Source: a virus (Duplodnaviria > Heunggongvirae > Uroviricota > Caudoviricetes). From it: 41,152 bases of DNA. Below are positions 529 to 40,219 of the stretch, in pieces; position 1 is the first letter of the stretch; each line of letters starts with the position of its first letter. Location: IMG/VR virus record IMGVR_UViG_2703718810_000001, positions 1 to 41,152 of that record; one strand, written 5' to 3'. Position numbers and translations under genes: made by a program. The notes under the pieces are model-generated. The model made no database searches and had not been told where the DNA came from. It saw only the letters and a list, made by a program, of their open reading frames with translations.

Positions 529-729
529 TTACCCATTAGCGCGGCTTAAGAGCTTATTTTTGAATTCACAATGGTCACGATATAACCATCTTGCTCGCCC
601 GTGGATAACTTTGGCTTTTGGCAGGTCGCCGGACTTAATCCGGTCGTAGATGAAGGTTTTACCGAAGCCAGTATCAGCCATGATGAATTTCAGATCAACC
701 AGTGAATCAGGCTGTAGTTCGTGTTGCAT
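529..729 (-). CDS. torI: Excisionase / Tor inhibitor TorI (AlpA-family DNA-binding protein)
   Basis: 66-aa translation matches K-12 TorI as recalled (KplE1 excisionase); sits next to attL. Confidence 0.8.
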   Translation of the reverse strand: MQHELQPDSLVDLKFIMADTGFGKTFIYDRIKSGDLPKAKVIHGRARWLYRDHCEFKNKLLSRANG

Positions 730-19577: not shown

Positions 19578-19600
19578 AATAACAACTAAGTGAGATGAAT

Positions 19601-20089
19601 ATGGCAGCACCAAAGGGCAACCGATTTTGGGAGGCCCGCAGTAGTCATGGGCGAAATCCTAAATTCGAATCGCCTGAGGCGCTGTGGGCTGCTTGTTGTG
19701 AATACTTCGAGTGGGCTGATGATAACCCGCTATGGGAGGGTAAGGTATTTTCATATCAGGGAGAAATAATTAAGGCTAATGTCCCTAAGATGCGAGCCAT
19801 GACTATTTCAGGATTGTGCACCTTCCTTGATATCACCAGGCAAACATGGGGAACCTTCCGGTCAATGGAAGGTTTTTCTGACGTCACATCACGAGCGGAA
19901 GACATCATCTACGACCAGAAATTCTCTGGCGCAGCCGCTGACCTTCTCAACGCTAACATCATCGCCCGTGATTTGGGCCTCAAAGAGCAGTCGCAAGTTG
20001 AAGACGTGACACCTGATAAGGGAGATCGCGATAAGCGGCGCTCTCGTATCAAGGAGCTATTCAACCGTGGAACTGGACGCGATTCTTGA
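19601..20089 (+). CDS. terminase small subunit (P22 gp3-like)
   Basis: [22 protein letters not shown]... N-terminus; directly upstream of and overlapping the large terminase. Start could be 19595. Confidence 0.7.
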
Positions 20090-21566
20090 TAACCTGAGCG
20101 ACGAAGAGCAAATCGAGTTGCTCGAGCTACTCGAAGAAGAAGAGAACTACCGGAACACACACCTGCTATATGAATTTACGCCATACAGCAAACAGCGTGA
20201 GTTCATCGACGCCGGGCATGACTATCCAGAGCGCTGTTTTATGGCTGGTAACCAGCTTGGTAAGTCATTTACTGGTGCTGCTGAAGTCGCGTTTCACCTT
20301 ACAGGGCGTTATCCGGGAACAAAAGGCTATCCGGCTGATGGTAAATATGGCGGGGAGTGGAAAGGTAAGCGTTTCTATGAGCCTGTTGTCTTCTGGATTG
20401 GCGGCGAGACAAACGAGACTGTAACCAAAACGACTCAACGCATCCTGTGCGGTCGTATCGAAGAGAATGATGAGCCTGGCTATGGTTCAATACCGAAAGA
20501 GGACATCATTAGCTGGAAGAAGTCTCCTTTCTTTCCGAACCTTGTTGATCATCTTCTGGTTAAGCATCACACGGCTGATGGCGTTGAAGATGGCATTTCA
20601 ATCTGCTACTTCAAACCATACTCGCAAGGCCGCGCTCGCTGGCAGGGTGACACAATCCACGGCGTGTGGTTTGACGAAGAGCCACCATACAGCATTTATG
20701 GCGAAGGTCTTACCCGTACCAACAAATACGGGCAATTCTCAATTCTGACGTTTACCCCGCTGATGGGGATGTCTGACGTTGTTACCAAGTTCCTGAAGAA
20801 TCCCAGCAAGTCTCAGAAAGTGGTCAACATGACCATCTATGACGCTGAGCACTACACCGACGAACAGAAAGAGCAAATCATCGCATCTTATCCTGAGCAT
20901 GAGAGAGAGGCGCGTGCTCGCGGTATTCCTACGATGGGTAGTGGTCGAATCTTCCAGATACCGGAAGAGACTATTAAGTGTCAGCCGTTCGAGTGTCCTG
21001 ATCACTTCTACGTAATTGGCGGGATGGATTTCGGATGGGATCACCCACAGGCCCAGGTTCAGCTTTGGTGGGATAAGGACGCAGACACAATCTACGTTTC
21101 ACGCGTGTGGAAGGCGAAAGAAAAAACAGCTGTTCAGGCATGGGGAGCTGTTAAATCATGGGCGCATAAAGTGCCAACCGCATGGCCTCATGACGGAAAC
21201 CAGCATGAGAAGGGCGGCGGTGAGCAGCTCAAAGGGCAGTATGCAGACGCTGGTTTTATGATGTTGCAGGAGCATGCGACATGGCCTGATGGCGGTAACG
21301 CTGTTGAGCCTGGCATCACTGAATTGCGAGACATGATGCTCGACGGTCGCTTCAAAGTATTCAACACCTGTGAGCCATTCTTTGAGGAGTTCCGCCTCTA
21401 TCACCGTGATGAAAACGGGAAAATCGTCAAGCTTAACGACGACGTGCTATCCGCCGTTCGCTATGCATACATGATGCGCCGCTTCGCAAAAATGATGCGC
21501 GACATCAAAAAGCCAAAAGAGAAAAAGATACCAGCCCCAATCAGGCCCATCGCACGGAGAACTTAA
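20067..21566 (+). CDS. terminase large subunit (P22 gp2-like, 499 aa)
   Basis: Same length as P22 gp2; position before the portal gene. Confidence 0.85.
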
Positions 21567-23732
21567 ATGGCCGACGAAAACAGACTCAATTCCATTCTGT
21601 GTAAGTTTGACGCAGACTGGATGGCGAGCGATGAAGCCAGAACCGAGGCGACAAATGACCTGTATTTTAGCCGAGTGTCGCAATGGGATGACTGGCTATC
21701 AAACTACACCACCCTGCAATATCGCGGACAATTCGATGTTGTCCGCCCGGTGGTCAGGAAGTTGGTCGCAGAGATGCGCCGGAACCCTATCGACGTTCTC
21801 TTCCGACCAAAAGACGGTGCTAATCCTGATGCAGCCGATGTGTTGATGGGGATGTATCGTACTGATATGCGCCATAACACGGCAAAAATTGCCGTTAACG
21901 TTGGCGTTCGTGAGCAGATAGAGTCCGGCGTTGGTGCATGGCGTCTGGTCACGCAGTACGAAGACAACGATCCAACAAGCAACAATCAGGTAATCCGACG
22001 CCTGCCAATCCATGAAGCCTGCTCACACGTCATATGGGACGCCAACAGCAAGCAGATGGATAAGAGCGACGCTAAGCACTGCACGGTGATTAACGCCTTG
22101 TCGCGCAATGGCTGGAAAGAGTTCGCAGAGGATTACGGTATTGATCCGGACACCTTGCCATCTTTCCAGAATCCGAACGACACATGGCTGTTTCCGTGGG
22201 TATCGAATGATGTCGTCTACGTCGCTGAGTATTACGAGGTAGAAGAGAAGAAGGAGAAAGTCTTCATCTACCGCGACCCGCTGACAGGTGAGCCGGTCAG
22301 CTATTACCAGCAGGATATTAAAGACGTTATCGACGACCTGGCTAATCGTGGATTCATTAAGGTAGCAGAGCGTAAGGTGAAGCGTCGGCGTGTATATAAG
22401 TCGATCATCACCTGCACGCAGATACTGAAAGACCGCGAGAAGATAGCTGGAGAGCATATTCCAATCGTTCCAGTGTATGGCGAATGGTCATTCGCTGGTG
22501 ACAAGGAGTGCTACGAAGGAGTGGTAAGGCTGACGAAAGACGGTCAGCGCCTTCGTAACATGATCATGTCGTTCAACGCCGATATTGTTGCTCGTTCACC
22601 GAAGAAGAAACCGACCTTCTTCCCTGAGCAAATCGAAGGCTACGAATACATGTACGGTGGAAATGATGACTATCCGTACTATCTGCAGAACAAGACCGAT
22701 GAAAACGGTAACGACCTGCCGATTGGTCCAATCTCCTACATGGAAAACCCTGAAGTGCCGCAAGCCAACGCTTACATGCTTGAGGCTGCCACCAACGCAG
22801 TGAAAGAGGTGGCTAGTCTTGGTGTGGATGCGCAGGCAGCAAACTCTCAGGTCGCTTTCGATACCGTCAATCAACTGAACATGCGGGCAGACCTTGAGAC
22901 ATACGTGTTTCAGGATAACCTGGCTACCGCAATGCGACGTGATGGCGAGATTTATGCATCAATGGTCAACGATATTTATGACGTTCCTCGTCATGTAACT
23001 CTGACTCTTGAAGATGGTAGCGAGAAAGACGTTCAACTCTACGCGCAAGTTGTCGATTACCAGTCCGGCAATGTGGTCACACTCAATGACATTCGCGGTC
23101 GCTATGAGTGCTATACAGACGTCGGACCATCCTTCCAGAGTATGAAGGAACAGAACCGCGCAGAGATTCAGGAGTTGCTCACCAAGGTTCCGCAAGGTAC
23201 TCCAGAGTTCCAGATGCTGATGCTGCAATACTTCACGCTGCTTGACGGTAAAGGCGTCGAGATGATGCGAGAGTACGCGAACAAGCAACTGGTGATGATG
23301 GGGCTGAAGAAACCAGAAACACCTGGAGAGATGGAGATGGTGCAACAGGCACAACAACAGCCGCAGCAGCCATCAGCAGAGCAAATTCAGGCGCAGGGCA
23401 TCCTTCTGCAAGGTCAGGCTGAATTGCTCAAGGCAGAGAACCAACAGGCGCAGATTCAGGTTGAAGCTGCCAAGGTTGAAGCTCAAAACCAACTCAACGC
23501 CGCGAAGATTGCAGAAATATTCAACAATATGGACCTCGACAAGCAGGCAGAACTGCGTGAGTACCTCAAGCTCGTAGGTCAATTCCAGCAACAGCGCAGC
23601 AAAGATGCTCGTGCTAACGCTGAGCTGCTTCTTAAAGATGCAGACCAGACTCATTCACAACGCATGGATTTCGCGAATCTTATGCGTCAAGTTCAAATCC
23701 CCTCCGGCGGAGTAGCCGAGACACCTCAATAA
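21567..23732 (+). CDS. portal protein (P22 gp1-like)
   Basis: 721 aa with Gln-rich C-terminal barrel segment; matches P22 portal as recalled. Confidence 0.9.
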
Positions 23733-23745
23733 GAGAGAGTTAATC

Positions 23746-24657
23746 ATGGACCAAACCACCGACATTCAGGCTTCTGAAGAATTAACCCTGACCGGCAATC
23801 ATGCAGCGGCATCTGCTGATGGCTTAGTTGTCGATAATGCCAACGACAACGCAGGTCAGGAAGAAGGCTTCGAGATTGTCCTGAAAGACGATGAGAAACC
23901 AAAACAAGACCCGGCAACTAATGCTGAATTTGCCCGTCGCCGCATCGAACGCAAACGCCAGCGTGAGCTTGAGCAGCAGATGGAAGCGGTTAAGCGTGGA
24001 GAATTGCCGGAGCACCTGCGGGTGAACCCTGAGTTACCAAAACAACCAGACCCTAACGATTATCTTTCCGAAGACGCACTGGCTAAGTACGACTATGACC
24101 AGAGCCGCGCACTGGCGGCCTTCCAGCAGGCAAACAGTGAATGGCAGATCAAGGCTATGGACGCACGAAGCCAGGCTGTCGCCGAGCAGGGTCGCAAAAC
24201 TCAGGAGTTCACCCAGCAATCAGCGCAATACGTCGAGGCAGCCCGTAAGCACTACGACGCAGCGGAAAAGCTCAATATCCCTGACTATCAGGAGAAAGAG
24301 GATGCATTCATGCAACTGGTGCCGCCAGCAGTCGGTGCCGATATCATGCGTCTCTTCCCGGAGAAATCCGCTGCTCTCATGTATCACCTTGGTGCTAATC
24401 CTGAGAAAACACGCCAGTTGCTGGCGATGGACGGGCAATCCGCGCTGATTGAACTCACTCGACTGTCAGAACGTTTAACTCTCAAGCCTCGAGCCAAGCC
24501 TGTTTCAGAAGCCCCGTTACCTGATGAACCCATTCAGGGACACGCTGTTGCTGCAAATATCTCTGCGATTGAAAAGCAGATGGAAGCGGCAGCAAACAAA
24601 GGGGATGTAGAGACGTACCGCAAGCTCAAGGCGCAACTGAATAAAGGAATTCGATAA
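23746..24657 (+). CDS. scaffolding protein (P22 gp8-like, 303 aa)
   Basis: Same length as P22 gp8 and matching sequence as recalled. Confidence 0.85.
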
Positions 24658-25952
24658 TGGCATTAAATGAAGGTCAACTGGTCACGTATGCTCTGGATGA
24701 AATCATCGAAACCGTCCAGAACCTGACGCCAATGGCGTCCAAAGTGACAAAATACACCCCTCCGGCAGAATCCATGCAGCGTTCAAGCAACACCGTGTGG
24801 ATGCCTGTTGAGCAGGAAGCGCCAACCCAGACTGGCTGGGATTTAACTGGCAACGCAACCGGGATTCTGGAACTCTCCGTGAAATGCAACATGGGCGACC
24901 CGGATAACGATTTTTTCGAGCTTCGTGCAGATGACCTGCGTGATGAGCGTTCTTACCGTCGCCGCATCCAGGCATCCGCCAAAAAACTGGCGAATAACAT
25001 TGAGTCAGCGATTGCCAAACAGGCAACTGAAATGGGCTCGCTTGTTGTTCACGATACCCGCGCAATTGGTCCATCTACTGGCCTGTCTGGCTGGGATTTT
25101 GTGTCTGATGCAGAGCGCCTGATGTTCTCCCGTGAGCTAAACCGCGATATGGGCATCAGTTACTTCCTGAACCCTGACGATTACCGCAAAGCAGGCCGCA
25201 ACCTGGTAGATGGTGACATCTTCGGGCGCGTTCCTGAAGAAGCGTATCGCAACGGTACTATTCAGCGTCAGATTGCTGGCTTTGATGAAATTCTTCGCTC
25301 ACCGAAACTTCCTGCAGTTACCAAGTCAACCGCTACTGGTGTAACTGTTTCTGGTGCGCAGAAGTTTAAGCCGCAGGCATACACTCTTGATACCGATGGT
25401 AACAAAGAGAACGTCGATAACCGTGTTGCAACGGTGACCGTATCCTCCACCACCGGATTTAAGCGCGGCGACAAAATCAGCTTCACTGGTGTGAAATTCC
25501 TGTCTCAGATGGCGAAGAACGTGCTAACTGATGATGCGACTTTCTCAATCACCCGTGTGATCGATAGTACTCACATCGAAATCACGCCGAAGCCGATTGC
25601 ACTTGATGACGCGTCACTGACAAAAGAAGAGAAGGCTTACGCTAACGTAAACACCTCTCTTGCTGATACCACTCCGGTAAACGTTCTGAACGTGGCAACA
25701 ACAACCGCTAACGTGTTCTGGGCTGATGACTCAATCCGTCTGCTGTCTCAGCCGATCCCGGTAACCCATGAACTGTTTGCTGGCATGAAAACGTCTTCCT
25801 TCAGCATTCCTGGTATTGGTGTTAACGGCATCTTCGCAACGCAGGGTGATATCAACACTCTGTCTGGTAAGTGCCGTATTGCTGTGTGGTATTCAGCATG
25901 TGCTGTACGACCAGAGGCAATTGGTGTTGGTCTGCCTAACCAGACCGCGTGA
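24657..25952 (+). CDS. major coat protein (P22 gp5-like)
   Basis: 431 aa; matches P22 coat protein as recalled; followed by a strong terminator. Confidence 0.9.
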
Positions 25953-25959
25953 TAACCAG

Positions 25960-25984
25960 AGGGAGCTTCGGCTCCCTTTTTTAT
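25960..25984 (+). terminator. rho-independent terminator after the coat gene
   Basis: AGGGAGC-ttcg-GCTCCCT followed by TTTTTTAT. Confidence 0.65.
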
Positions 25985-25996
25985 CTGGAGACAAGC

Positions 25997-26221
25997 ATGA
26001 CACACATGATTTTTCGTCATGGAGACATGAAGAAGTGGAAAGGCGTTGGATACGACTTTGAAATCGTGAAAGCCGAAGAGCTTCAGGAATATCTGGATGC
26101 TGGTTGGTTTTCACATCCTGATGACCTTTTGAAGGATGTTGCAGAGCCAGAAGAAAAGCAGCGTAAAAAGCCTGGTCGAAAACCTAAGGCGGCAGCAGAT
26201 GAACCTGACAACGAAGGGTGA
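25997..26221 (+). CDS. hypothetical small acidic/basic protein (74 aa)
   Basis: ATG at 25997 with GGAG upstream; overlaps the gp4 start by 23 nt. Confidence 0.4.
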
Positions 26222-26699
26222 TTTAGTTCTTGCGGCATTACGTAAGCTCGGTGTGGCATCAAATGCCACGTTAACCGATGTCGAACCGCAGTCTATGGAA
26301 GACGGCGTCAACGACCTTGAAATGATGATGGCTGAATGGCTTGGCGGTGATGCGTCACCTGGTATCAACGTTGGCTACATTTTTGCTGATGCAGATGTTG
26401 CTCCGGATCCGGGCGATGAGCACGGCTTATCAAATAACGCTATAAATGCCGTCATTTTCAACCTTGCCTGCCGCATTGCTCCAGATTATGCGCTGGAAGC
26501 GTCTGCAAAACTTATAACCACTGCCAGATACGGGAAAGAGCGACTCGTCAAACTGTCTGCAATGGACAGAGCAAAAGCCGCAAAATGTAAGTCCGGTTAT
26601 CCAAACCGTATGCCTGTTGGCAGTGGAAACCAGTTGGCGAAGTGGAACGGTTGGAATTACTTCCACCGAAAGGAACCTTGTGATAACGGGAGCGAATAA
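26199..26699 (+). CDS. tail accessory factor / head completion protein (P22 gp4-like)
   Basis: From [21 protein letters not shown]..., 166 aa like P22 gp4. Confidence 0.75.
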
Positions 26700-28117
26700 T
26701 GCCGATTCAGCAACTTCCGCTTATGAAAGGTGTCGGCAAAGACTTTAGAAACGCCGACTATATCGACTATCTGCCAGTGAATATGTTGGCTACACCCAAA
26801 GAAATCCTTAACAGCAGCGGATATCTTCGTTCATTCCCGGGCATTGCCAAACGTTCTGATGTGAACGGAGTATCGCGAGGCGTCGAGTACAACATGGCGC
26901 AGAGTGCTGTTTATCGCGTGTGTGGTGGCAAGCTGTACAAAGGCGAAAGCGAAGTCGGTGACGTCGCCGGAAGTGGTCGTGTATCAATGGCGCATGGTCG
27001 TACATCTCAGGCGGTAGGCGTTAATGGTCAACTGGTCGAGTATCGCTATGATGGCACGGTTAAAACCATCTCAAACTGGCCTACAGACAGTGGATTTACG
27101 CAGTATGAGTTAGGTTCGGTTCGCGACATTACGCGCTTGCGCGGGCGTTATGCGTGGTCAAAAGACGGCACTGATTCATGGTTTATCACTGACCTTGAAG
27201 ACGAATCGCATCCTGACCGCTACAGTGCACAATATCGCGCAGAATCGCAGCCGGACGGCATCATCGGTATCGGCACATGGCGAGACTTCATCGTCTGCTT
27301 TGGTTCATCGACGATTGAGTATTTTTCCCTGACTGGTGCAACCACCGTTGGTGCCGCTTTGTATGTCGCACAGCCATCACTGATGGTGCAGAAAGGCATT
27401 GCCGGGACTTACTGCAAAACGCCGTTTGCTGACTCGTATGCGTTCATCAGCAATCCGGCAACAGGTGCGCCGTCTGTATACATCATCGGCTCCGGTCAGG
27501 TATCACCAATCGCCAGCGCGAGCATTGAGAAAATACTACGCTCCTACACTGCTGATGAACTGGCTGAAGGCGTGATGGAATCGCTGCGGTTTGATGCGCA
27601 TGAGTTGCTGATTATCCATCTTCCGCGCCACGTACTCGTGTACGACGCATCTTCAAGCGCCAATGGTCCGCAATGGTGTGTGCTGAAAACAGGCCTGTAT
27701 GACGATGTGTACCGCGCTATAGACTTCATTTACGAAGGCAATAAGATAACGTGCGGCGATAAGCTGGAGTCCGTGACCGGGAAATTGCAATTCGATATCA
27801 GCAGCCAGTACGACAAGCAACAGGAACACCTGTTGTTTACTCCGTTGTTCAAAGCAGATAACGCCAGAGTTTTCGACCTTGAGGTTGAGTCGTCAACTGG
27901 AGTTGCGCAGTATGCTGACCGCCTTTTTCTCTCTGCAACCACTGACGGCATCAATTACGGGCGTGAGCAGATGATTGAGCAGAATGAACCGTTCGTTTAC
28001 GACAAACGTGTTTTGTGGAAGCGAGTAGGGCGCATCAGGAAAAATGTCGGCTTCAAATTGCGCGTTATCACGAAGTCACCTGTCACTCTGTCTGGCTGCA
28101 AGATAAGGATTGAGTAA
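26699..28117 (+). CDS. tail hub protein (P22 gp10-like, 472 aa)
   Basis: Same length and order as P22 gp10. Confidence 0.8.
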
Positions 28118-28965
28118 TGGCGGATTCGAATCTCAATGTGCCGGTAATCATTCAGGCTACACGGCTCGACACATCAGTCCTTCCACGCAATATCTTCTCG
28201 CAGTCGTATCTGCTTTACGTTATCGCACAGGGTACTGATGTTGGTAACGTGGCTAACAAAGCCAACGAGGCCGGACAGGGCGCTTATGACGCACAAGTCA
28301 GGAACGATGAGCAGGATGTGATTCTCGCTGACCATGAGCAGCGAATTTCTGCTGCGGAAGCAACGCTTGTTAATCATGAGGAGCGAATCAGCCAGGCAGA
28401 ATCAACTCTTCAGGAACATGAAACGCGAATCGCTCAGAATGAAAGCGATATTGCGTCGCTTGATACCAGAGTTCAGTCGCTGGAGTCGCAGGTTTCAGAC
28501 CATGAAACGCGCATTGATGCTCTGGAGTATGCCACCACGCGCAAGAAATCAGAGGTTGTTTACTCAGGGGTATCGGTAACAATTCCGACAGCATCTACTA
28601 ACCTTGTTGACCTGCTGAAAACACTCACGCCGTCATCCGGCACGCTGGCACCATTCTTCGACACCGTTAACAACAAGATGGTTGTGTTCAACGAGAACAA
28701 AACCTTGTTCTTCAAGCTGTCGATCGTCGGGACGTGGCCCAGCGGAACCGCCAACAGGTCAATGCAGCTAACCTTTTCCGGCTCTGTTCCTGATACGCTG
28801 GTCAGCAGTCGTAATGCGGCGACAACAACCGACAACATCCTGTTAGCTACATTCTTCAGCGTGGATAAAGACGGATTTCTTGCCACAAATGGCAGTACGT
28901 TAACCATTCAGTCAAATGGGGCGGCGTTTACTGCCACAACCATCAAGATAATCGCGGAGCAGTGA
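28117..28965 (+). CDS. tail needle protein (gp26-like) with extended C-terminal domain
   Basis: N-terminus [18 protein letters not shown]... like P22 gp26; heptad coiled coil; 282 aa versus 233 in P22. Confidence 0.8.
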
Positions 28966-29420
28966 TGATTCAGTTCAAACCAACGCGAAACATCGACCTG
29001 ATCGAAGCAGTCGGAAATCACCCTGACATTATTGCCGGAAGCAACAACGGTGATGGATACGACTACAAGCCTGAATGCCGTTACTTTGAGGTTAACGTGC
29101 ACGGTCAGTTTGGCGGCATTGTTTACTATCAGGAAATTCAGCCGCTTACATTCGATTGCCACGCCATGTACCTGCCAGAGGTTCGTGGATTCAGCAAGGA
29201 AATCGGGCTGGCGTTCTGGCGATACATTCTTACTAACACCACCGTTCAGTGCGTCACATCGTTCGCTGCGCGCAAATTCCGCCACGGTCAGATGTACTGC
29301 GCAATGATTGGCCTTAAGCGTGTAGGAACCATCAAGAAATACTTCAAAGGCGTGGATGACGTGACTTTTTACAGCGCAACACGCGAAGAACTAATCGACT
29401 TCCTGAATCACGGGAGATAG
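28962..29420 (+). CDS. virion assembly protein (P22 gp14-like)
   Basis: Gene order after the tail needle gene. Confidence 0.65.
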
Positions 29421-29422
29421 CC

Positions 29423-30118
29423 ATGTTATATGCATTTAAGCTGGGCAGAAAACTGCGCGGCGAGGAACCTTATTGCCCTGAAAAAGGCGGGAAAGGTGGC
29501 AGCTCTGATAAAAGCGCAAAGTATGCAGCAGAAGCTCAGAAGTATGCAGCAGACCTGCAAAATCAGCAGTTCAACACCATCATGAACAACCTGAAGCCGT
29601 TTACTCCTCTGGCTGATAAGTATGTCGGCAGCCTCGAGAACTTATCGTCTCTGGAAGGGCAAGGTCAGGCACTTAACCAGTATTACAACTCTCAGCAGTA
29701 CAAAGATCTTGCTGGTCAGGCTCGCTATCAGAGTCTGGCGGCAGCGGAAGCAACAGGTGGATTGGGTTCCACTGCAACCGGTAATCAGTTAGCAACAATC
29801 GCACCAACGCTTGGTCAGCAATGGCTATCTGGTCAGATGAACAACTACCAGAATCTGGCAAATATTGGTCTTGGCGCACTGCAAGGTCAGGCAAACGCCG
29901 GGCAGACATATGCCAACAACATGAGTCAGATTTCGCAGCAAAGTGCGGCTCTTGCAGCGGCAAATGCCAACAGACCATCAGCAATGCAATCTGCTATTGG
30001 CGGAGGTGCGTCTGGTGCTATTGCTGGGGCTGGACTTGCGAAATTAATTGGTTCATCAACTCCGTGGGGTGCTGGTATCGGTGCTGGTATCGGTCTGCTT
30101 GGTTCACTGCTTTATTAA
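29423..30118 (+). CDS. ejection protein (P22 gp7-like)
   Basis: Length and order as P22 gp7; Gln/Ala-rich with Gly-rich C-terminus. Confidence 0.75.
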   Translation: MLYAFKLGRKLRGEEPYCPEKGGKGGSSDKSAKYAAEAQKYAADLQNQQFNTIMNNLKPFTPLADKYVGSLENLSSLEGQGQALNQYYNSQQYKDLAGQARYQSLAAAEATGGLGSTATGNQLATIAPTLGQQWLSGQMNNYQNLANIGLGALQGQANAGQTYANNMSQISQQSAALAAANANRPSAMQSAIGGGASGAIAGAGLAKLIGSSTPWGAGIGAGIGLLGSLLY

Positions 30119-30128
30119 GGGGTAATCA

Positions 30129-31544
30129 ATGGCTACGTGGCAACAGGGTATTAATTCTGGTGGTTTTCTGGCTGGCATCGGTACGCAAAATGAGAATGCG
30201 CCAAAGGCAAGCGACATTAACGCAACGCTTGGTATGATCCGCGAAAACAATGAACTGGCTCGCTCAGGTGCAAATAACGTTGGCCTGACCGCGTTACGTG
30301 GTCTGGCTGGAGTTGCTGATATTTACAATCAGGAACAGCAACAGAAAGCTATTAGTGCGTTCAATAAGGTTCACGCTGATGCATGGGCTTCTGGTGATCC
30401 ATCGGGACTATTTAAGTTTTCCCAGGAAAATCCAGCGTTTGTTGCACAGGCACAACAGGCGTTTTCCGGTCTTAATGATCAGCAACGCAACGATATGGGC
30501 GATTTAGCCATGAGGGCTAACGTCGCTCTTTCTCAGGGACCGGAAGCCTACAGTAAATTCATTACTGACAACAAGGACAGGTTAAATCGCGTTGGTGCTA
30601 ATGCTGACTGGATGATTCAGACAGGTATCCAGAATCCAGAGCAGCTATCACACATGCTGACTACTATGTCTCTCGGTGCGCTTGGACCAGAAAAGGCGTT
30701 TGCTGTTCAGGACAAGATGGCTGGTCGTGAGATTGACCGAGGCAGGCTGGCAGAGACAATCCGCAGCAATCAGGCTGGAGAAGCACTTCAGGCGAGAGGG
30801 CAAAACCTTTCCTATCAGTCAGCAATGACTGGGCACAATATCGCAGCACAACGCTTGGCTCTGGATCAGCAAGAGTTCGGGTTTAAGATGCAGCAAGCGC
30901 AGGAAAAGGCTCAGCAGTTGATTAGCGAAGCACCTAAGCTGTCAGTAAACATGGAAAAAGGCATCGAGACGGCTGTAAACAATGCCACAGCATCATCAAA
31001 CTCAGCCAATTCCATGAGTGCGCTTGCTCAACAGTTCAGAGCAGAAAAACCAACGACCGGCTTGTTCGGTAACGCACAGAACATGTTCGCAAAACTTACC
31101 GGAAGCGATACGACATTGCGTGATTTGCGCATTCGCCAAAATGCCCTTGTTAACAGTCAGGTTCTTAAATTCCTACCTCCCGGACCAGCAACGGATAAAG
31201 ACGTTGAGATCGTTCGACAGGGTGCGCCAACTGACATGGATAACCCTGAGACGGTCGCAAGATGGCTTGATGCAATGGCAAACCTTGAGCGACGAAACGC
31301 GCAGTTTAATGAGTTTAAAGCTGAGTGGATGAGCGCGAATGGCAACCCTGGACAATCGCGTAATGGCGGTCAGATATTGGGGTTGGATGTTAAAAAAGGT
31401 GAATCATTGGGGAGTGCCGTTAAGCGGTATATGTCAATGAATACTGACGCAGCGCCAGCACAAGATTCGACACCTTCAGGAGAACCACGGAATCAGTTTG
31501 GATCATATACCTCAAAATCAGGCATTCAATTTACGGTGGAATGA
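30129..31544 (+). CDS. ejection protein (P22 gp20-like, 471 aa)
   Basis: Same length and order as P22 gp20. Confidence 0.75.
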
Positions 31545-33382
31545 TGAAAGTAACTGCAAACGGTAAGACATTTACCTTTCCTGATGGTACGAGCACCGAA
31601 GATATTGGCACCGCCATTGATGAGTATTTTGCTGGTCAGGCTGTTCAGCAACAAACAGTTAATCAGGCCAATAATGCACCAACACGGGAAGAACCATCAT
31701 TGATGCAACAAGCTGGCGATTGGCTCACTGGTGGTCAAAGTGCAGGGCAAATTGCGGAACAGGCTGGTCGTGGTCTGGTAAACATACCATTTGACGTATT
31801 GCAGGGCGGCGCAAGTCTGATTAATGCAATCAGTCAGGGGCTTGGTGGACCCAAGGTTTTGGATGATGTTTATCGTCCAGTAGACAGACCGACAGACCCC
31901 TACGCGCAAGCCGGTGAAACAATTGGTGGGTATTTAGTTCCAGGAGTTGGAACGGCAGGAAGCATGGCTATTGGATCACTGGCAGAGGCCGCAAATCAGA
32001 AAGGCGATTTCGCACAAAATGCAGCTAAAAATGCCGGAGTTAACCTTGCCGCTCAGGGTGTTCTTTCCGCAGCAGCAAAGGGAATAGGGCGTGGAATAAC
32101 GGCTATAAAAGGTGATATTGCGCCAGAAGTGGCGAAGAAAATTGCCACATCAGAATCGATGGGCGTGACACCAATGACATCTGATGTTATCCCGCCGAAA
32201 AATGCTTTCACTCGCGGCCTTACTCAGGATGCCGAGGGGGCTTTGCTCGGGACAGGCTCAAAGCGAGCGGAGCAATATGCAACGCGTAGTAAGTTGGTAA
32301 GTAATTATTTTGACCGTTTTGGTGAGTACAACCCGGATGATGTGGTGAAATCTCTGACCACCACGTTAAGGGGACGGAAGGATGCCGCTGGCGCTGTTAT
32401 CAATGACGTCACCAATAAAATGGGGAATGCCGCAGTTGATACCACAAATACTATGAATGCTCTGAATACAGCGATCGCAAGACAGGAACGGCTTGGGACG
32501 TCTGCCAATCAAAGCCTGCTTACATCCTTGCGTAACCTACGTGAAGAATTAGCAAACCCTGCAACTGATTTGGATGTTACGTTTGATCTCTTGCGTCAGC
32601 ACAGAACAGCATTTAGATCTAATGTTCAGGGAGATGCTATGGTCTTCCCCAACCAGGCAAAAGCAGCTACCAATATGGTAGAGAATGCAATGTCAAAAGA
32701 CCTTCGTAACGCAGTTGCTAAAAACCTCGGTGCATCAGACGCAGCAAAATACCTTAAAGCAAATTCCGATTATGCAAACGTTTATAATAAGGTGCTTAAT
32801 AAAAACATTGCCAACAAGCTCAACAAGGCAAGCAGTGAAGCCAGTCCTGAACTTATAAATACCGTTGTATTAAGCAGAAAACCATCTGACGTGAAACGAA
32901 TCTGGAGCGCATTGGATGATAAAGGGAAAGATGCTATGCGTGCAGCTTACGTCAGCAAAATAGCGGAAAAGGCCGGTGACTCTCCAGCCAAGTTCATCAC
33001 TGAAGTTAATAAGCTTAAATCTCAGTCAGGCGGTGAAATTTACAACACTATTTTTTCTGGAAAGCACATGAAAGAGCTCGATGCTCTTCATGAAGTTCTA
33101 CAGCAAACAGCAAGGTCAGACACCGCAAATGTAGTAACTCAGACGGGGCAATCACAAGCCAACAGGATAAGGACGATTGGCGCAACTGCGACTCTTGGAG
33201 TATCAATGGGGATTGAGGCTGGTTTTGGTGCAATGATGCGTTTGTATGAGTCCAAAGCAGCAAGGAATGCGCTCTTACGTCTGGCAAACACTAAAGCTGG
33301 AACGCCAGCTTATGAAAGAGCGCTAAATCAGGCTGCTACTGCCGTGCGCCCGCTCTTAGCTAACGAAGCGACCCGGCAGTAG
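31541..33382 (+). CDS. ejection protein (P22 gp16-like)
   Basis: 613 aa; last gene of the rightward virion operon. Confidence 0.75.
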
Positions 33383-33404
33383 CACTGTAAGCCAAGGACG
33401 GCAT

Positions 33405-33971
33405 TTATTTTATAGTTTTTATGAATTCTTTATTAAATCCCTTAGCTTCTCCGGGGTATCTTCCAAAGACAATTTTTATAAAAACAGAAAAAATAAAGAT
33501 AGCAACGCTTAACAACAGTTGCAGTATCATTGGAACCCAAAGAACTACAGGCTCTATATTCATGAAACCAAATATTCTTCCGGCGATCATGGCGAAGTAC
33601 CACACTGTTATCAGCAAACTTAGTGGCATATGAATTACTGATATTACCAATCCAAGAGCATCAGTAATTCTATTTTCAAATTTTTCAGGGGAAAACTTTT
33701 CTTTAAGGTAATTCAGTGCGCAGGCCTCATTCTCTGGATTTTCAGCATTTTTCCCTATAGCAATAGAAATCTCAGATATCCTTGATTCAATTCTTTTTCG
33801 TTTAATAAAACTAGAAAAAAAGAACCACGCAATCTGCAACCCTATCCCCATAAATAGAGTTGCGGCAACTAGCACAGCGTAACTCATAGAATCAGACACA
33901 CCAACCTCTTTAGTTTTTCTAGTTACTTTGTCACGATAGGATATGCGAATTGATAAAACTAAATTGCGCAC
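33405..33971 (-). CDS. 3-TM inner-membrane protein, candidate superinfection-exclusion protein (SieA-position)
   Basis: Three predicted TM helices; AT-rich; occupies the position of sieA in P22 (between gene 16 and mnt). Start uncertain. Confidence 0.55.
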
Positions 33972-34116
33972 ATGATAACTCAGTAATAATTGTTAATGAA
34001 AACATGATCACCTATATTGCACAAGGCGAAACAGGAAGCATAATCTGGTTTCATGAGTGTGATCACGTTTGGGTAAATCAAAGTCAAGAGGAAATACTTG
34101 AAATTATCAAAAATAA

Positions 34117-34698
34117 CTATCTAAACGTTGCACACGACTCATCTATCCATTTTTCATAAAATTGTATACCGAGATAGGCAAGAACAGATGGATGTATATC
34201 AACAAGCTTTTCGCCAAGATGTTCTGTTGGAGGTGGATAATCTTTGCCTTGGTTTCTTACGGTTATAGGCATAGTTGTTGCTGGATGAAACTCAACTATC
34301 ATAGGGTCGCCTTCGTATTTTGCTATTTTCCCTGTTGAATCAATGATTAACTCTTTAATATAATGGCTTCTTGCTCCCGGAAATGCCCCAAGAGTAGTAT
34401 AAGGAGGTTCAAGTTTTGAGATTTCCATAGTGGAATGATGATCAGCATTTCTTGCTTGGTGAAGGTAAGCAAGTGTTTTGTCTGTTTTTCTAAGCATGAA
34501 CTTTTGGTTGAAGTGGCTGCTAAATTTTCCACTAACCGGCTTTGTTGCACAGAGCAACTTACTGAAAGACTTTTCTATATGCCCAAGACATTCTCGCCAG
34601 TGCATTTCAAAATCATCATGGTTTGTAGATGATTTCATCTGCTCTAGGCACTTTTTAGCTGCGATGATTTCTTTTTTTGCTGGGTTGTAATCGATCAT
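34117..34698 (-). CDS. hypothetical protein (193 aa) translationally coupled to mnt
   Basis: ATG overlaps the mnt stop (ATGA); AT-rich; no motif recognised. Confidence 0.6.
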   Translation of the reverse strand: MIDYNPAKKEIIAAKKCLEQMKSSTNHDDFEMHWRECLGHIEKSFSKLLCATKPVSGKFSSHFNQKFMLRKTDKTLAYLHQARNADHHSTMEISKLEPPYTTLGAFPGARSHYIKELIIDSTGKIAKYEGDPMIVEFHPATTMPITVRNQGKDYPPPTEHLGEKLVDIHPSVLAYLGIQFYEKWIDESCATFR

Positions 34699-34949
34699 TT
34701 TGCATCCTTGCCATACATGTTTTTAAGTGTCTCAAATACCACAGACTTGAACTGTTCAGCCTGCATCTCGGCTAATCGTTCAGCTTCATTGCGATAACCT
34801 TTTACAGGAGATGGTCTCGATAGAGCATCTTGGACGATTTGCAACAATTCTGAGTTCATTGATCTACCATTTGACTCTGCTCTGTATTTTAATTTTTCTC
34901 TTACTTCCAAAGGCATGCGGAAGTTAAAGTGCGGATCATCTCTAGCCAT
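34695..34949 (-). CDS. mnt: Mnt maintenance repressor (ribbon-helix-helix)
   Basis: Translation matches P22 Mnt as recalled. Confidence 0.85.
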   Translation of the reverse strand: MARDDPHFNFRMPLEVREKLKYRAESNGRSMNSELLQIVQDALSRPSPVKGYRNEAERLAEMQAEQFKSVVFETLKNMYGKDAK

Positions 34950-34971
34950 GCCATCACTCCAAGTTAGTGTA

Positions 34972-35023
34972 TTGACATGATAGAAGCACTCTACTATATT
35001 CTCAATAGGTCCACCGTGGACCT
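34972..35023. promoter_or_regulatory. immI control region: Pant with Oarc and Omnt operators
   Basis: TTGACA and TATATT with 17-bp spacer; ATGATAGAAGCACTCTACTAT between them; near-palindrome AGGTCCACCGTGGACCT at 35007-35023. Confidence 0.65.
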
Positions 35024-35039
35024 ATATTGTGAGGTGAAC

Positions 35040-35201
35040 ATGAAAGGAATGAGCAAAATGCCGCAGTTCAATTTGCGGTGGCCTAAAGAAGTATTGGATT
35101 TGGTACGCAAGGTGGCGGAAGAGAATGGTCGGTCTGTTAACTCTGAGATTTATCAGAGAGTAATGGACAGCTTTAAGAAGGAAGGGCGTATTGGCGCGTA
35201 A
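35040..35201 (+). CDS. arc: Arc repressor (ribbon-helix-helix)
   Basis: From [15 protein letters not shown]...; GAGGTG RBS; 53 aa. Confidence 0.85.
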
Positions 35202-35275
35202 AGTTGAAGCCCCAACTGCGGGAACAGTCAGGGCTTCTGTTGTCAGTAAATTCGTGGAGAAAAACCAACATGAAT
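35202..35275 (-). ncRNA. sar: possible sar-like antisense RNA region opposite the ant ribosome-binding site
   Basis: P22 has a small antisense RNA at the arc-ant junction; boundaries here are guessed, no promoter or terminator assigned. Confidence 0.25.
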
Positions 35276-36172
35276 AGTATAGCAATTTTAGAAGCAGTGA
35301 ACACCTCTTACGTACCTTTCAATGGTCAGCAGATTATCACCGCCATGACTGCCGGAGTTGCATATGTTGCGATGAAGCCAATCGTTGAAAACCTTGGAAT
35401 GAGCTGGTCAACGCAGCAAACAAAACTCATGAAGCAGATTAGCAAATTCAACTGTGTTCATATGAACATGGTTGCCGCTGATGGTAAGCTTCGTAAGCTA
35501 CTCTGCCTTCCTTTGAAGAAGTTAAATGGATGGCTGTTCAGCATCAACCCTGAGAAAGTTCGTGCTGACATCCGCGATAAACTGATTCAGTACCAGGAAG
35601 AATGCTTTACTGTGCTGCATGACTACTGGACGAAGGGAAAGGCAGAAAATGCACGTAAGAAAACATCTGTTGATGACAGGACTCCGCTTCGTGATGCTGT
35701 AAATATGCTAGTCAGCAAAAAGCATCTAATGTACCCAGAAGCTTATGCAATGATTCATCAGCGTTTCAACGTGGAAAGTATTGAAGAGCTTGATTCATCT
35801 CAGATACCGCAAGCAGTAGAGTACATCCACAGGGTAGTGCTTGAAGGCGAGTTCATCGGCAAACAAGAGAAGAAAACCAACGAGCTTTCTGCAAAAGAAG
35901 CAAACAGCCTTGTATGGTTATGGGATTATGCCAACCGCTCACAGGCATTATTCCGCGAACTGTATCCGGCGCTAAAACAAATTCAATCGAACTATTCCGG
36001 CAGATGCTACGACTACGGTCATGAGTTCTCGTATGTTATCGGAATGGCGAGAGACGTTTTAATAAACCACACACGAGATGTTGATATTAATGAGCCAGAC
36101 GGACCAACGAATCTCTCCGCATGGATGAGACTTAAGAATAAAGAATTGCCTCCTTCAGTACATAACTACTGA
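35270..36172 (+). CDS. ant: antirepressor Ant
   Basis: From [21 protein letters not shown]..., 300 aa; GGAG RBS; ORF-track start at 35204 is TTG. Confidence 0.8.
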
Positions 36173-36190
36173 CAGATAACCAACGCAACG

Positions 36191-36215
36191 ACCCAGCTTC
36201 GGCTGGGTTTTTTTA
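36191..36215 (+). terminator. rho-independent terminator after ant
   Basis: ACCCAGC-ttcg-GCTGGGT followed by TTTTTTT. Confidence 0.65.
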
Positions 36216-36350
36216 TGCCCAAAATTCACCGCAGCAACTAAGCGGCGATGGCCTTGATGGATAGCACTACGAAATTTTCGTAGTTCAAAAACCAAACAAA
36301 TACCAACCGTAGCCATGCTGCGGCGATTCCTTGTATCTGGAGCAAATTAA

Positions 36351-38279
36351 ATGACAGACATTACAGCCAATGTTGTGGTAAGCATGCCTTCGCAACTCTT
36401 CACTATGGCGCGTTCTTTTAAAGCCGTAGCCAATGGAAAAATTTATATCGGTAAAATTGACACTGACCCTGTAAATCCTGAAAACCAGATTCAGGTTTAT
36501 GTGGAGAACGAAGACGGCTCTCACGTTCCTGTTTCGCAACCAATCATCATTAATGCTGCTGGATATCCGGTATATAACGGACAGATTGCCAAATTCGTAA
36601 CTGTGCAAGGCCATTCAATGGCTGTATACGATGCGTATGGTGCGCAGCAGTTCTATTTTCCTAATGTGCTGAAGTATGACCCTGATCAGCTGGAGCAAAG
36701 ACTTTCAAGTACATCAGGAGCATCATTAATAGGTATAGATAAATATGGTACAATTGAGAATGCAATTAAATATTCAATAAAGTATGTAACACCAGAAATG
36801 TATATCTCACAGTCCTCAGACATAACCGAGGCTATTCAGATGGCAATTGATGATTGTGAGGTTGTATATATGGAACCTACCGACTACCTTATTGAAAGAA
36901 CCATAAATATACCTGATGGCAGGGTTATTTATCTTGGCGGATCAAAGTTAACAGCTTCTACAGGTAGTTCTCCTATATTTAAGTATAATGGGAAAAATAT
37001 CGGATTAACAATTTGGGGCGGCAGCTGCATTGTTACAGGAGCGGCAAGTGCATTCTTAGAGGCTGAAGGTGATAGCGACACACCTAGCAATGAAGACTAT
37101 ATTAAACAGATAAGACTTTACGGTGTTCATGTATCATCTTCAATGATAACATATGCGCTTTTGTTAAAAAAAGCAGTTCGTCAAATATTTATTGATTCCT
37201 GCATGTTTTATACCGTAAATGGGATTGTTTCATCAGGGAAAACAGTAGAGTTGGCTTGCAATAAGAGCATTGTATTTGGGGCGACAACGGCTACTGATAC
37301 TGTTGGAATTGGCATTTATAGTACTGGAACCGGTGGCCCTTATTATAATGAGGGATGGCATTTTACCGATTGCACAATAGATAATTTTGAAAGAACATTT
37401 GATGTCTCTGATATATATGTGTTAACTGTCAATGGTGGATTTATAGGAAATAACTCAAATACTGGATTTGCTATGTATTTTGGAGAGGGAAATACAACTC
37501 ATTGTAGAGAAATTAATGTTAATACAGTCATAGGAGGTAGGGTTAAGTTTAACAACGCCACTATCGAGAGATTGTGTCATGCAAAATTTAGCGGTGAGAT
37601 AACCTACTGCAAGGGTGGGAGTGGGGTGTGTTTTGCCATTGGCAATAATATATCTGCAGTTGATGTTATTGGTATGAAGTTTACAACTAATACAGGACAC
37701 GTTGTAGCAACTGTTGGTAATGGTTCTTCAAATATTCATTTTTCTGATATAAGCACAGACTCTTCACACATCTCTGGAATATTGTTTTCTGGCACCGATG
37801 GTGGTAATTGTTCAATATCAGACTTTTCATACTCAGGAGCAGGGGAGGCTTTATCACTTCCAAGGCCTGTTAAGCTTTCAAACGTACCAGTCATCGGTGT
37901 TGCTACACCTGTTTTTTCAATAAAAAATGATTTTGTATCTTCTAACAAGATAGTAGCAATAGGTTCAAATATAAATCAGTTGCAGATGACAATCGCTAAA
38001 GGTAGTAGAATTTCAATAAATATAAACATTTCTTACCTTGGTGGTGCTGGAAGCACGGCGCAAGTAATAGGAATTACTGCGCCAAGTGGTACTATACTTC
38101 CAAATGGCAGCAATAGTATGCAATTCACTCTTCCTGAGGCTAATGGAAGTGTTACTTTAAATGTAATTGCCTCAGTTTCTACTGATTTCATTAATGGATC
38201 TTTTACCATAGATAACAGGGCTGGGAATACATTAACTGTTATGCCCGGCTCTCATCTTTCAGTTACTCTATCGAATTGA
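36351..38279 (+). CDS. tailspike protein: conserved head-binding domain plus divergent receptor-binding domain
   Basis: First ~115 aa match the P22/HK620 tailspike N-terminus as recalled; remainder is AT-rich, Gly/Ser/Thr/Asn-rich and different. Confidence 0.8.
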
Positions 38280-38289
38280 TAAATATAAT

Positions 38290-38320
38290 AAACCTAGTGT
38301 TAATTATTATCACTAGGTTT
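38290..38320. terminator. bidirectional rho-independent terminator between tailspike and gtrA remnant
   Basis: AACCTAGTG-ttaattattat-CACTAGGTT hairpin with T-rich tracts on both strands. Confidence 0.55.
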
Positions 38321-38326
38321 ATTTTC

Positions 38327-38608
38327 TCACTCGCATTTCTTACTAAAATCAATTACAAATACAGTTTTATTATATTTTATGTCGTAAAATTCTGTAGAGG
38401 ATGTGCTATCAAATGAGCAATAAGTCGATGCTTTGAATGTGAATTTTGCATTCTCGAAGAAGCTAAAACTCATAGCCACAACGAAACCTGCGAAGTTCGC
38501 CATAGCTTGATTTGTATGCGCTGCATAGATACATACACCAAAAACCACCCAGTGTATAAGTGTGTTCAGTACACCAATTGAGGTGTACCTTGCAAATATA
38601 TTTAACAT
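38327..38608 (-). pseudogene. gtrA: truncated gtrA (bactoprenol-linked glucose translocase) remnant
   Basis: First ~60 aa match K-12 GtrA/YfdG as recalled, then diverge and stop at 93 aa; no gtrB or gtrC follows. Confidence 0.55.
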
Positions 38609-38750
38609 TTATTTAATCAATGAGTTCTGAAAGGCATGAAGTCTATCATCCAAGTCTCAATCGATCGATGACTTGCTATGGTTGATGAGACAAACAAAGT
38701 TTTGTACTGGATTGCAAGGCTTTGTGCTCTTCGATAGTGGTTAAGGTGGA

Positions 38751-39908
38751 TCACTCCACCTTTTCATCAAGCCAGTCCGCCCACCACTGCATCATTTCTC
38801 TGCGCTTATCGAGATACTGAGCATGGTTGTAAATTCCACGTACAGATCCGCCGTTGGCATGTGCCAGTTGCACTTCAATGGCGTCGGCAGGCCATTCGTG
38901 CTCGTTCATAATTGTGCTGAATTCATGCCTGAATCCGTGACCGCTTTCCAGACCCTCATAGCCGATTTGTTTGATCACAAGCAATACCGCGTTCTCGCAG
39001 ATTGGCTTCTTCTTATCGTTGCGACCGGCAAAAACAAACTCTGATACTGGTTTAGTGATTGAGCTTAGCGTAGTGAGAAGTTCAACCACCTGGTCTGACA
39101 TAGGAACCACATGAATTTTGCGACCCTTCATCACACTGGCGTCGATGGTGATAATCCTGTTTTCAAAATCGACGTTCTTCCATTGCATGGAACGAAGCTC
39201 TTTCGTTCTTAGGGCTGTATAGCGTAAAACCTTGGTCGCAATGAGCGATACGATGCTTCCTGAAAATGTTGCCAGTGCTTTGTTAAATGCCGGGATCTGG
39301 TCTGCAGGAAGAAACGGGAAGTTTTTCTTGCGGTATCCCTTCATGGCGTCAGCAAGGTCAGGTGCCGGGTTATATTTAGCCCTACCAGTGACAATAGCGT
39401 AACGGAAAACCTCGCCACATCTTCTGCGTGCTTTGTTGGCTCGCTCCATTGCACCGCGATCTTCAAATCTGCGGATTACTTCCAGCAGTTGCATCGGCTC
39501 AATATCCTGAATCTCAAGACCGCCGATGATGGGTAAAATGTCGTCATCAAACATTTTGGCAAGTTCAGTTGCATAGCCTACTGACCAGACTTGCTTCTTG
39601 TGCTCGTACCATTCCTTGTAAATCGCACTAAATGAATTGTTGTTAGACGAAGCCTTTTTCGCCTTTACCGGATCGATGCCAACCGAGATGTCTTTCCTCG
39701 CAGTCCATGACTTATCCCTTGCTTCCTGCAAAGTCATAAGCGGATATTTTCCGACGGTCAGGATTTTCTCTTTACCGTCAATCTTGTAGCGAAGCTGCCA
39801 TACCTTTTTCCCGGATACAGGAACATAAAGGTACAGGCCATTACCATCGAGAAGGCGGTATGGTTTTTCTTTCGGCTTTGCTGCTTCAATCTGCTTAACG
39901 GTGAGCAT
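38751..39908 (-). CDS. intS: tyrosine integrase (IntS-like)
   Basis: Translation from MLTVKQIEAAKPKEK matches K-12 IntS as recalled; adjacent to argW. Alternative GTG start at 39944. Confidence 0.85.
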   Translation of the reverse strand: MLTVKQIEAAKPKEKPYRLLDGNGLYLYVPVSGKKVWQLRYKIDGKEKILTVGKYPLMTLQEARDKSWTARKDISVGIDPVKAKKASSNNNSFSAIYKEWYEHKKQVWSVGYATELAKMFDDDILPIIGGLEIQDIEPMQLLEVIRRFEDRGAMERANKARRRCGEVFRYAIVTGRAKYNPAPDLADAMKGYRKKNFPFLPADQIPAFNKALATFSGSIVSLIATKVLRYTALRTKELRSMQWKNVDFENRIITIDASVMKGRKIHVVPMSDQVVELLTTLSSITKPVSEFVFAGRNDKKKPICENAVLLVIKQIGYEGLESGHGFRHEFSTIMNEHEWPADAIEVQLAHANGGSVRGIYNHAQYLDKRREMMQWWADWLDEKVE

Positions 39909-40069
39909 GGGTAAAAATCCGGTGGGTAAAATTATTTTATCCACTTTTTACCCGTCATGGAGTGCGGCTGTCAACGATCTGAAGCGAACCATGACGAACT
40001 ATGAATCTACGGAAGGCTTGATATTAAGGGGATTTTGCGGACTGGTACGGATGGGAGCGAACTGATAAA

Positions 40070-40084
40070 TGGTGTCCCCTGCAG
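40070..40084. repeat. attR core (TGGTGTCCCCTGCAG), 3' end of argW
   Basis: Exact copy of 441-455. Confidence 0.7.
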
Positions 40085-40144
40085 GAATCGAACCTGCAAT
40101 TAGCCCTTAGGAGGGGCTCGTTATATCCATTTAACTAAGAGGAC
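40070..40144 (-). tRNA. argW: tRNA-Arg (anticodon CCU)
   Basis: 75-nt cloverleaf ending ...GGGGACACCA with anticodon loop CUCCUAA; matches argW as recalled. Confidence 0.85.
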
Positions 40145-40219
40145 AATGCGGCATGAGTATACCCGCTAATGGACTGCGGGGTAAGTACGCTGCCGCTCGA
40201 TTGCTTAAACCCTCGCCAT

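Follow-up and report, generated by a model that had tools for sequence, protein, structure and literature searches.

The window analysed here is the whole of a 41,152-nucleotide (nt) stretch of viral DNA, the IMG/VR record IMGVR_UViG_2703718810_000001, and the subject of this work is the tailspike gene at 36351-38279 of the P22-like prophage that it carries. The gene starts with ATG, GGAG stands 8 nt 5' of this codon, and the open reading frame (ORF) is intact. The encoded protein has two parts, a particle anchor and a receptor-binding domain (RBD), and the gene is followed by a hairpin and by a remnant of an O-antigen glucosylation (gtr) operon. The features of the locus are listed below, where L005 and L006 denote two uncultured phage loci with which it was compared.

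36190-36209, plus strand: intrinsic terminator after ant and upstream of the tailspike gene, with an 8-bp GC-rich stem, a TTCG loop and a run of seven T.
36351-38279, plus strand: tailspike gene, 642 amino acids (aa).
36351-36695, plus strand: head-binding (particle anchor) domain, residues 1-115, Pfam PF09008, GC 0.44.
36696-36775, plus strand: junction or neck, residues ~116-141; P22-like similarity stops at 36688-36698, and similarity to genes with other anchors starts at 36726 (L006) or 36775 (L005).
36696-38279, plus strand: RBD, predicted as a right-handed parallel beta-helix with a C-terminal beta-sandwich, GC 0.37.
36726-38422, plus strand: segment 89-91% identical in nucleotide sequence to RBD and gtr cassettes of phages with other anchors, starting at 36726 (L006) or 36775 (L005).
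38287-38323, no strand assigned: hairpin between the convergent tailspike and gtr genes, with a 13-bp AT-rich stem and an 11-nt loop; probable bidirectional terminator.
38327-38608, minus strand: gtrA'-'gtrC in-frame fusion ORF, 93 aa, made of gtrA codons 1 to ~61 (38423-38608) and the last 31 codons of gtrC plus its stop (38327-38422).

The anchor is shared with the tailspikes of P22-like phages. PF09008 Head_binding is the sole Pfam match in the protein and covers residues 1-113 over the full profile (E 1.4e-67); N-terminal fragments of the P22 tailspike align with residues 2-115, and Sf6 gp14 is near-identical up to about residue 113. The PDB sequences that match are the Sf6, P22 and related tailspikes, and beyond about residue 113-115 their alignments are no longer strong. 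Megablast matched 31 phage records, among them HK620, CUS-3, Sf6, IME10 and epsilon34; every one of these matches ends at nt 339-348 of the gene, and the nucleotide identity of the anchor is 92.7% to HK620, 93.8% to CUS-3, 90.6% to Sf6 and 84% to epsilon34. An earlier note on this DNA had assigned the first ~115 residues to the P22/HK620-type head-binding domain and had called the remainder unrelated to either tailspike. These comparisons bear out the assignment, while the second statement holds for the sequence of the RBD and not for its predicted fold.

At the sequence level, the RBD alone (residues 116-642) returned no match at E≤10 in a phmmer search of the PDB, and homology to the endorhamnosidase and endo-N-acetylglucosaminidase RBD families of P22, HK620 and Sf6 was therefore not found. 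It carries no Pfam or NCBIfam domain, and its single match in PHROG is marginal. A weak alignment to Sf6 that reaches residue 280 was considered as RBD homology and rejected, as it is driven by the anchor and is gone when the RBD is searched alone. A profile search of the PDB (profile A2) matched only PF18668 anchor regions and not the RBD; PF18668 is present in most of the aligned relatives. The structure prediction for a beta-helix that the earlier note had proposed gave a right-handed parallel beta-helix in a monomer model, as in the RBDs of P22-like tailspikes. Sf6 is the best match to this model in Foldseek, and the structural matches are those of a generic beta-helix, at 9-14% identity. 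The RBD is thus predicted to adopt the same tailspike beta-helix fold despite its unrelated sequence, and the protein, modelled here as a monomer, presumably forms a trimer.

The remote homology search proposed alongside the structure prediction recovered a small family. In tblastn searches of phage records the RBD matched the tailspikes of Kagunavirus phage 26 (UAW06957.1; 51.8% identity, E 2e-147) and of Uetakevirus vB_EcoP_PAS61 (WMX19002.1; 49.1%, E 6e-169), with a weaker match in Aeromonas phage ACP1. Pairwise identity is 52.7% over 522 positions to the phage 26 tailspike (residues 114-642) and 51% over 516 aligned positions to that of PAS61 (residues 118-642), which places the RBD in one subtype with both under the definition of ≥30% identity over ≥60% coverage (PMC10408124). 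PAS61 was isolated on an O146:H21 strain and infects solely a smooth O146 strain, forming plaques with halos, and its tailspike was proposed as the O146-specific determinant; the same study pointed out the similarity of the PAS61 and phage 26 RBDs and predicted two acidic active-site clusters (Pas et al., 2024, PMC11522302). The tailspikes of PAS61 and phage 26 belong to the same RBD family as the one described here, but their anchors and virion types differ, as do about half of the residues.

When 1.84 billion representatives were scanned exhaustively with HMMER, this family came to only 94 clusters at E≤1e-3, in which the domain is always C-terminal, in proteins of 500-900 aa with varied N-termini. 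The acids predicted in PAS61 (E404, E437, D447, E491, E521, D541 and D573) correspond to E300, E334, D344, E387, E416, D438 and D470 here, and all seven are conserved. Positions at least 90% conserved across 62 members, down to about 25% identity, include E334, G335, D344, D354, D470 and K297. This conservation singles out E334 and D344, which lie in the NEGWH...TIDNF region, itself conserved, as the foremost catalytic candidates, with D354 and D470 as further candidates; the catalytic residues of P22, Sf6 and HK620 do not map by sequence onto this RBD.

The exact 642-aa protein is present in NCBI as a 'phage head-binding domain-containing protein', within a cluster of 58 sequences from draft E. 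coli genomes, and the identical tailspike is found on at least 13 contigs, in different mosaic prophages. Megablast and blastn searches of 5,426 complete E. coli genomes gave no match to the RBD DNA. The O-antigen locus lies beyond the ends of the window. A literature search for the carrier assemblies and protein accessions found nothing.

In a search of 5.8 billion proteins the RBD was found at 97% identity in proteins of the same architecture and at 84-90% identity in proteins with other N-termini. In the protein of L006 (P0003) it stands behind a PAS61-type Uetakevirus anchor (MTVSTEVDHNEYTGNGVTT...), and holin and endolysin genes follow, as in PAS61. In the protein of L005 (P0004), and in P0005, it stands behind a PF18668 Tail_spike_N element; the gene 5' of P0004 is similar to genes of temperate siphoviruses of Klebsiella and E. 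coli. At the protein level the RBDs of P0003 and P0004 are 89-90% identical to this one, and the anchors of L005 and L006 share nothing with the anchor of this tailspike. Two P22-anchored proteins (P0028 and P0031) carry cousins of the RBD at 36-43% identity. At least four anchor or virion types carry members of this RBD family: P22-like, epsilon15-like Uetakevirus, temperate siphovirus-like with PF18668, and lytic Kagunavirus.

The earlier note had read the locus as an exchange of receptor-binding domains, and the presence of the same RBD DNA, at 89-91% identity, behind two other anchor types strengthens that reading. Horizontal acquisition of the RBD is supported by this sharing of DNA, which is more direct evidence than a break in composition. 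Given this level of identity to the nearest copies with other anchors, the exchange would not be very recent. Because P22-like similarity ends, and similarity to genes with other anchors starts, at the positions listed above, the crossover zone is the neck, codons ~113-141. A 44-nt junction motif reported for lytic genera was looked for at the junction; only a short G-A-S-L micro-motif is common to all of the anchors there, and we make no claim from it.

The sharp drop in GC content that the earlier note had described after the anchor is confirmed: GC falls from 0.438 in codons 1-115 to 0.370 in codons 116-642, and GC at third codon positions from 0.426 to 0.256. A two-segment fit by maximum likelihood over 35204-38279 puts the break at nt 36697 (codon 116), and no 1584-nt window in 1-36350 is as AT-rich as the RBD. 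The RBDs of unrelated P22-like E. coli prophages are likewise AT-rich (0.37 in L003, 0.41 in L004), as are the related RBDs of L005 (0.38) and of L006 (0.38, against 0.53-0.54 in the flanking genes), and in gtrC the GC content is as low as 0.32. E. coli tailspike RBDs and gtrC are poor in GC as a rule; for this reason the GC step reliably marks a module boundary rather than a recent event and gives no date.

The same note had placed strong terminators on both sides of the gene. Both hairpins exist, and the one at 36190-36209 is canonical and ~95% conserved in other argW P22-like prophages, but 'strong' is generous for 38287-38323, which has only a short T tract and was missed by a consensus terminator scan. 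This second hairpin is much more stable than shuffled sequences (z -6.3) and folds equally on both strands, and its stem is kept in L005 and L006 by one compensatory A-T to G-C change; it is probably a bidirectional terminator. Several relatives lack a 78-nt segment (about 36236-36305) that stands here between the ant terminator and the start of the tailspike gene. Imperfect 22-nt direct repeats (36228-36249 and 36306-36327) border this segment, and E. coli Combat2C1 (L003) carries in the region of the indel an HNH endonuclease gene, with ant on one side and the tailspike gene on the other. The interval 36228-36327 looks like a small insertion hot spot just 5' of the tailspike gene.

Homology to L005 and L006 does not stop with the RBD; it runs 143 nt past the tailspike stop codon, through the hairpin and into the last 32 codons of gtrC. 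In both of these loci gtrC encodes a 474-aa PF14264 glucosyltransferase and is followed by gtrB, with gtrA also present in L005, and all of these genes are convergent with the tailspike gene. Because the homology continues past the stop and the hairpin into gtrC, the exchanged unit is larger than the RBD, consisting of the RBD, the terminator and gtrCBA. The locus described here has the RBD, hairpin and gtrC 3' end in common with L005 and L006, but the gtrC and gtrB genes that are intact there are deleted here, and the anchor is P22-like where that of L005 is of the PF18668 type, in a siphovirus-like context, and that of L006 of the Uetakevirus type.

In place of an intact gtrABC operon (gtrA ~120 aa, gtrB ~305 aa, gtrC ~474 aa), the window holds only the gtrA'-'gtrC fusion ORF, and gtrB is absent. 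The fusion matches positions 1-55 of the 117 of Pfam GtrA and terminates at gtrC's own stop codon; its gtrA part is 92-93% identical in nucleotide sequence to the yfdG-intS junction of other argW prophages. The in-frame join of gtrA to gtrC at 38422/38423 is thus the scar of a single deletion of ~2.5 kb, which took the remainder of gtrA, all of gtrB and most of gtrC.

This scar is present without gaps in the 8 other carrier contigs examined, barring one small indel in L014. The carriers include a 97% variant (L014) and prophages with quite different immI/ant modules, and over 7.2 kb one of them, L008 (GCA_001607605.1), shows 100% identity to the window. Further carrier assemblies are GCA_001748915.1, GCA_051412335.1 and GCA_049548385.1. 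Compared with 33001-40200, the carriers L007-L014 have the identical 642-aa tailspike and the scar behind different ant, arc/mnt, sieA or P63C, SocA and KilA-N genes. Since the scar is common to carriers with different immI/ant modules, the tailspike-scar(-intS) block is an established unit, one that moves by recombination between P22-like backbones of different kinds, and whole-gene shuffling among P22-like prophages is thus layered over an older swap at the level of the RBD. In six of the eight carrier loci intS follows the tailspike and scar in the same layout. Similarity of L012 and L013 to the window stops at 38805-38808, 58 nt into int; the right-hand neighbours of L012 are other chromosomal genes (PBP5-like, BMC/Eut-like), and the L013 contig ends there.

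The tailspike gene belongs to one complete ~39.6-kb P22-like (Lederbergvirus-type) prophage at argW in E. coli, delimited by the following features.

441-455, no strand assigned: att core copy of 15 nt, TGGTGTCCCCTGCAG, repeating the argW 3' end.
529-729, minus strand: torI excisionase gene, at the prophage end opposite intS.
38751-39944, minus strand: intS, encoding an IntS-type tyrosine integrase, at the argW end of the prophage.
40070-40144, minus strand: tRNA-Arg(CCT) gene argW, whose 3' 15 nt (40070-40084) are the att core TGGTGTCCCCTGCAG.

Next to the prophage lies yfdC, a gene that all 5,426 complete genomes contain and that matches E. coli chromosomes at 99.8% identity. The genes follow P22-like order, from ERF recombinase and Ead/Ea22 in the early-left region through an S24/HTH repressor, replication protein O and a DnaB-type helicase, and lysis genes, to terminase, portal, scaffold, coat and ejection proteins (terminase to ejection proteins at 19595-33382), and then sieA, arc/mnt, ant and the tailspike gene. 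Over the structural half, nucleotide identity is 95-96% to coliphages IME10 and HZ41 and about 83% to P22. A block of ant, tailspike, a variable O-antigen modification gene, intS and argW recurs across many E. coli genomes, in which similarity skips the tailspike C-terminus and the following gene. We considered whether int and the gtrA piece might be an older, separate remnant and rejected this, as the two att cores, with torI and intS at opposite ends, delimit one element, and the layout is common in E. coli. The recombination module is of the KplE1/CPS-53 type, with intS by argW and torI at the far end, which is why the tailspike gene and not xis neighbours int.

Several further observations concern this prophage. 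A 16-nt piece at 749-764, GGAATCGAACCTGCAA, is identical to tRNA-Arg positions 40084-40099, the bases adjoining the att core; it is found just past torI, some 300 nt in from the left end of the prophage, and may either be left over from an earlier integration or represent a T-arm-like fragment. The DnaB-type replicative helicase (11060-13453, plus strand) has 797 aa where about 450 are usual, and its matches to DnaB models fall in two parts, residues 3 to ~200 and residues 540-762. The insert of ~340 aa has LAGLIDADG_3/Hom_end homing-endonuclease signatures (residues 393-454) and weak matches to intein-containing DnaB and RecA models, and is probably an intein within the helicase. A second AT-rich block (33405-34700, minus strand; GC 0.35-0.39) contains sieA together with a 193-aa ORF for which neither Pfam nor PADLOC gave a match; among carriers the same position is occupied by Rap1a-like, SocA-like or other small genes, which suggests a moron or defence hot spot. 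PADLOC scans of neighbouring ORFs of unassigned function and of the gtr fusion found nothing.

The tailspikes of P22 (gp9), HK620 (gp9), Sf6 (gp14) and CUS-3 have in common with this one the PF09008 head-binding domain, the same design of anchor, neck, beta-helix and C-terminal domain, and the same position, after ant at the end of the late region and beside an O-antigen-modification locus and int. What differs is the RBD, which is unrelated in sequence here and presumably has a different glycan specificity. In Lederberg-, Uetake- and Kagunaviruses the type of anchor goes with the taxonomy of the phage and the type of RBD with the O serogroup, and O-antigen modification genes behind the receptor-binding protein (RBP) have also been described (PMC10408124). 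Passages in the literature describe adjacency of the tailspike to gtrABC in P22 and epsilon34 and to oac in Sf6 (PMC2629481, PMC10883804; PMC10408124). In these phages the spike adjoins conversion genes that alter the same receptor, whereas here the conversion operon has been cut to the 93-codon gtrA'-'gtrC fusion; the PAS61 tailspike, for its part, is followed by an O-antigen acetylase gene where this one is followed by the gtr remnant.

We consider it very probable that this gene encodes a P22-like prophage tailspike in which a standard anchor carries a horizontally acquired beta-helix RBD, with O-antigen cleavage as its most likely activity, and that the linked gtr cassette was later deleted. 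In P22, Sf6 and HK620, six trimeric spikes attach to the tail by the head-binding domain, and the virion reaches the outer membrane as the beta-helix binds O-antigen repeats and cleaves them. By the same scheme, residues 1-115 would plug the spike into the tail machine, and residues ~118-642 would bind and most likely cleave the host O-antigen through E334 and D344, with D354 and D470 nearby. In P22, tailspike transcription depends on antitermination of the late operon, which reads through the ant terminator, and presumably the same holds here. We propose that in the ancestral cassette the RBD was joined, through the shared bidirectional hairpin, to a convergent gtrC-gtrB-gtrA operon, whose products would have glucosylated the same O-antigen and so blocked superinfection. 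The prophage lineage would have inherited this linked cassette, after which one in-frame deletion removed gtrB and most of gtrA and gtrC. With the gtr genes deleted, lysogens should no longer mask the receptor, and the repressor and SieA would be their remaining protections.

Two points weigh against this proposal. Neither the direction nor the timing of the transfer can be read from the data, and PAS61, the only relative with a proposed specificity, is just 51% identical, its O146 specificity having itself been deduced from host range. That the C-terminal part instead diverged in place, its low GC arising from selection or mutation bias, is scarcely credible to us. The AT-richness of other P22-like E. 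coli RBDs is in its favour insofar as low GC alone is no proof of transfer, but the RBD DNA is 89-91% identical to genes with unrelated anchors, the anchor is 91-95% identical to genes with unrelated RBDs, and the boundary between the two is sharp, at codon ~115-125. There is a small chance that the gene is a dead relic in a defective prophage, as the deletion of the adjacent gtr operon and the loss of most of int in the carrier lineage of L012 and L013 might indicate. Such a relic is hard to square with an intact 642-codon ORF whose identical product recurs across different mosaic prophages, or with a full-length prophage that retains att sites, intS, torI, repressor, replication, lysis, head and tail genes.

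The target and activity of the acquired RBD are less firmly set than its acquisition. The O-antigen of the carrier strains is the expected target, favoured over capsule because of the linkage to gtr and oac genes. An RBD directed at a capsule (K antigen) or another exopolysaccharide has a precedent on the same anchor in the endosialidase tailspike of CUS-3, but seems quite improbable here: the nearest relatives are linked to gtrCBA, and PAS61 to an O-antigen acetylase, both being O-antigen modification genes; PAS61 is confined to a smooth O146 strain; and the structural matches reflect only generic beta-helix similarity. We somewhat favour a hydrolase, an O-antigen-specific endoglycosidase. 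A module that only binds, or that acts as a lyase or esterase, is unlikely in view of the four acids conserved family-wide and the retention of every PAS61 candidate residue, to which may be added the haloed plaques of PAS61 and the fact that the known P22-like O-antigen tailspikes, those of P22, Sf6 and HK620, are endoglycosidases. O146 itself is a rather doubtful target, since specificity for it is not assured at only 51% identity to PAS61. Returning to the reading of an O-antigen-cleaving spike with a lost gtr cassette, we tentatively suggest an extension of it, to which we give less than even credence: the RBD may read an E. coli O-antigen that has no characterized phage RBP and that would, given the lack of this RBD in all 5,426 complete genomes, be of an uncommon serogroup, the RBD and gtrC may form a co-adapted 'reader plus masker' cassette that moves between podoviruses and siphoviruses and is kept together by the shared bidirectional terminator, and loss of the masker, instead of being simple decay, may have been adaptive in keeping the native O-antigen.

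Modular exchange of RBDs and the linkage of tailspike to gtr genes are already established, and no concept is changed by this locus. Three things are new: the RBD is placed in the PAS61/phage 26 family and given candidate catalytic residues, the hairpin and the gtr operon are shown to belong to the shared block, and the in-frame gtrA'-'gtrC deletion scar is described. The gene adds a Lederbergvirus-anchored member to a small RBD family in which only two members, of inferred specificity, have been published. Tailspike RBDs can be reused in diagnostics, engineered tailocins and phage cocktails. They are also the main determinant of the O-serogroup that a P22-like phage infects, and their swapping is a well-known route to a changed phage host range; the locus offers a clean, base-pair-resolved case in which an RBD and an O-antigen glucosylation operon were swapped as a block across virion types, the modification genes then being lost.
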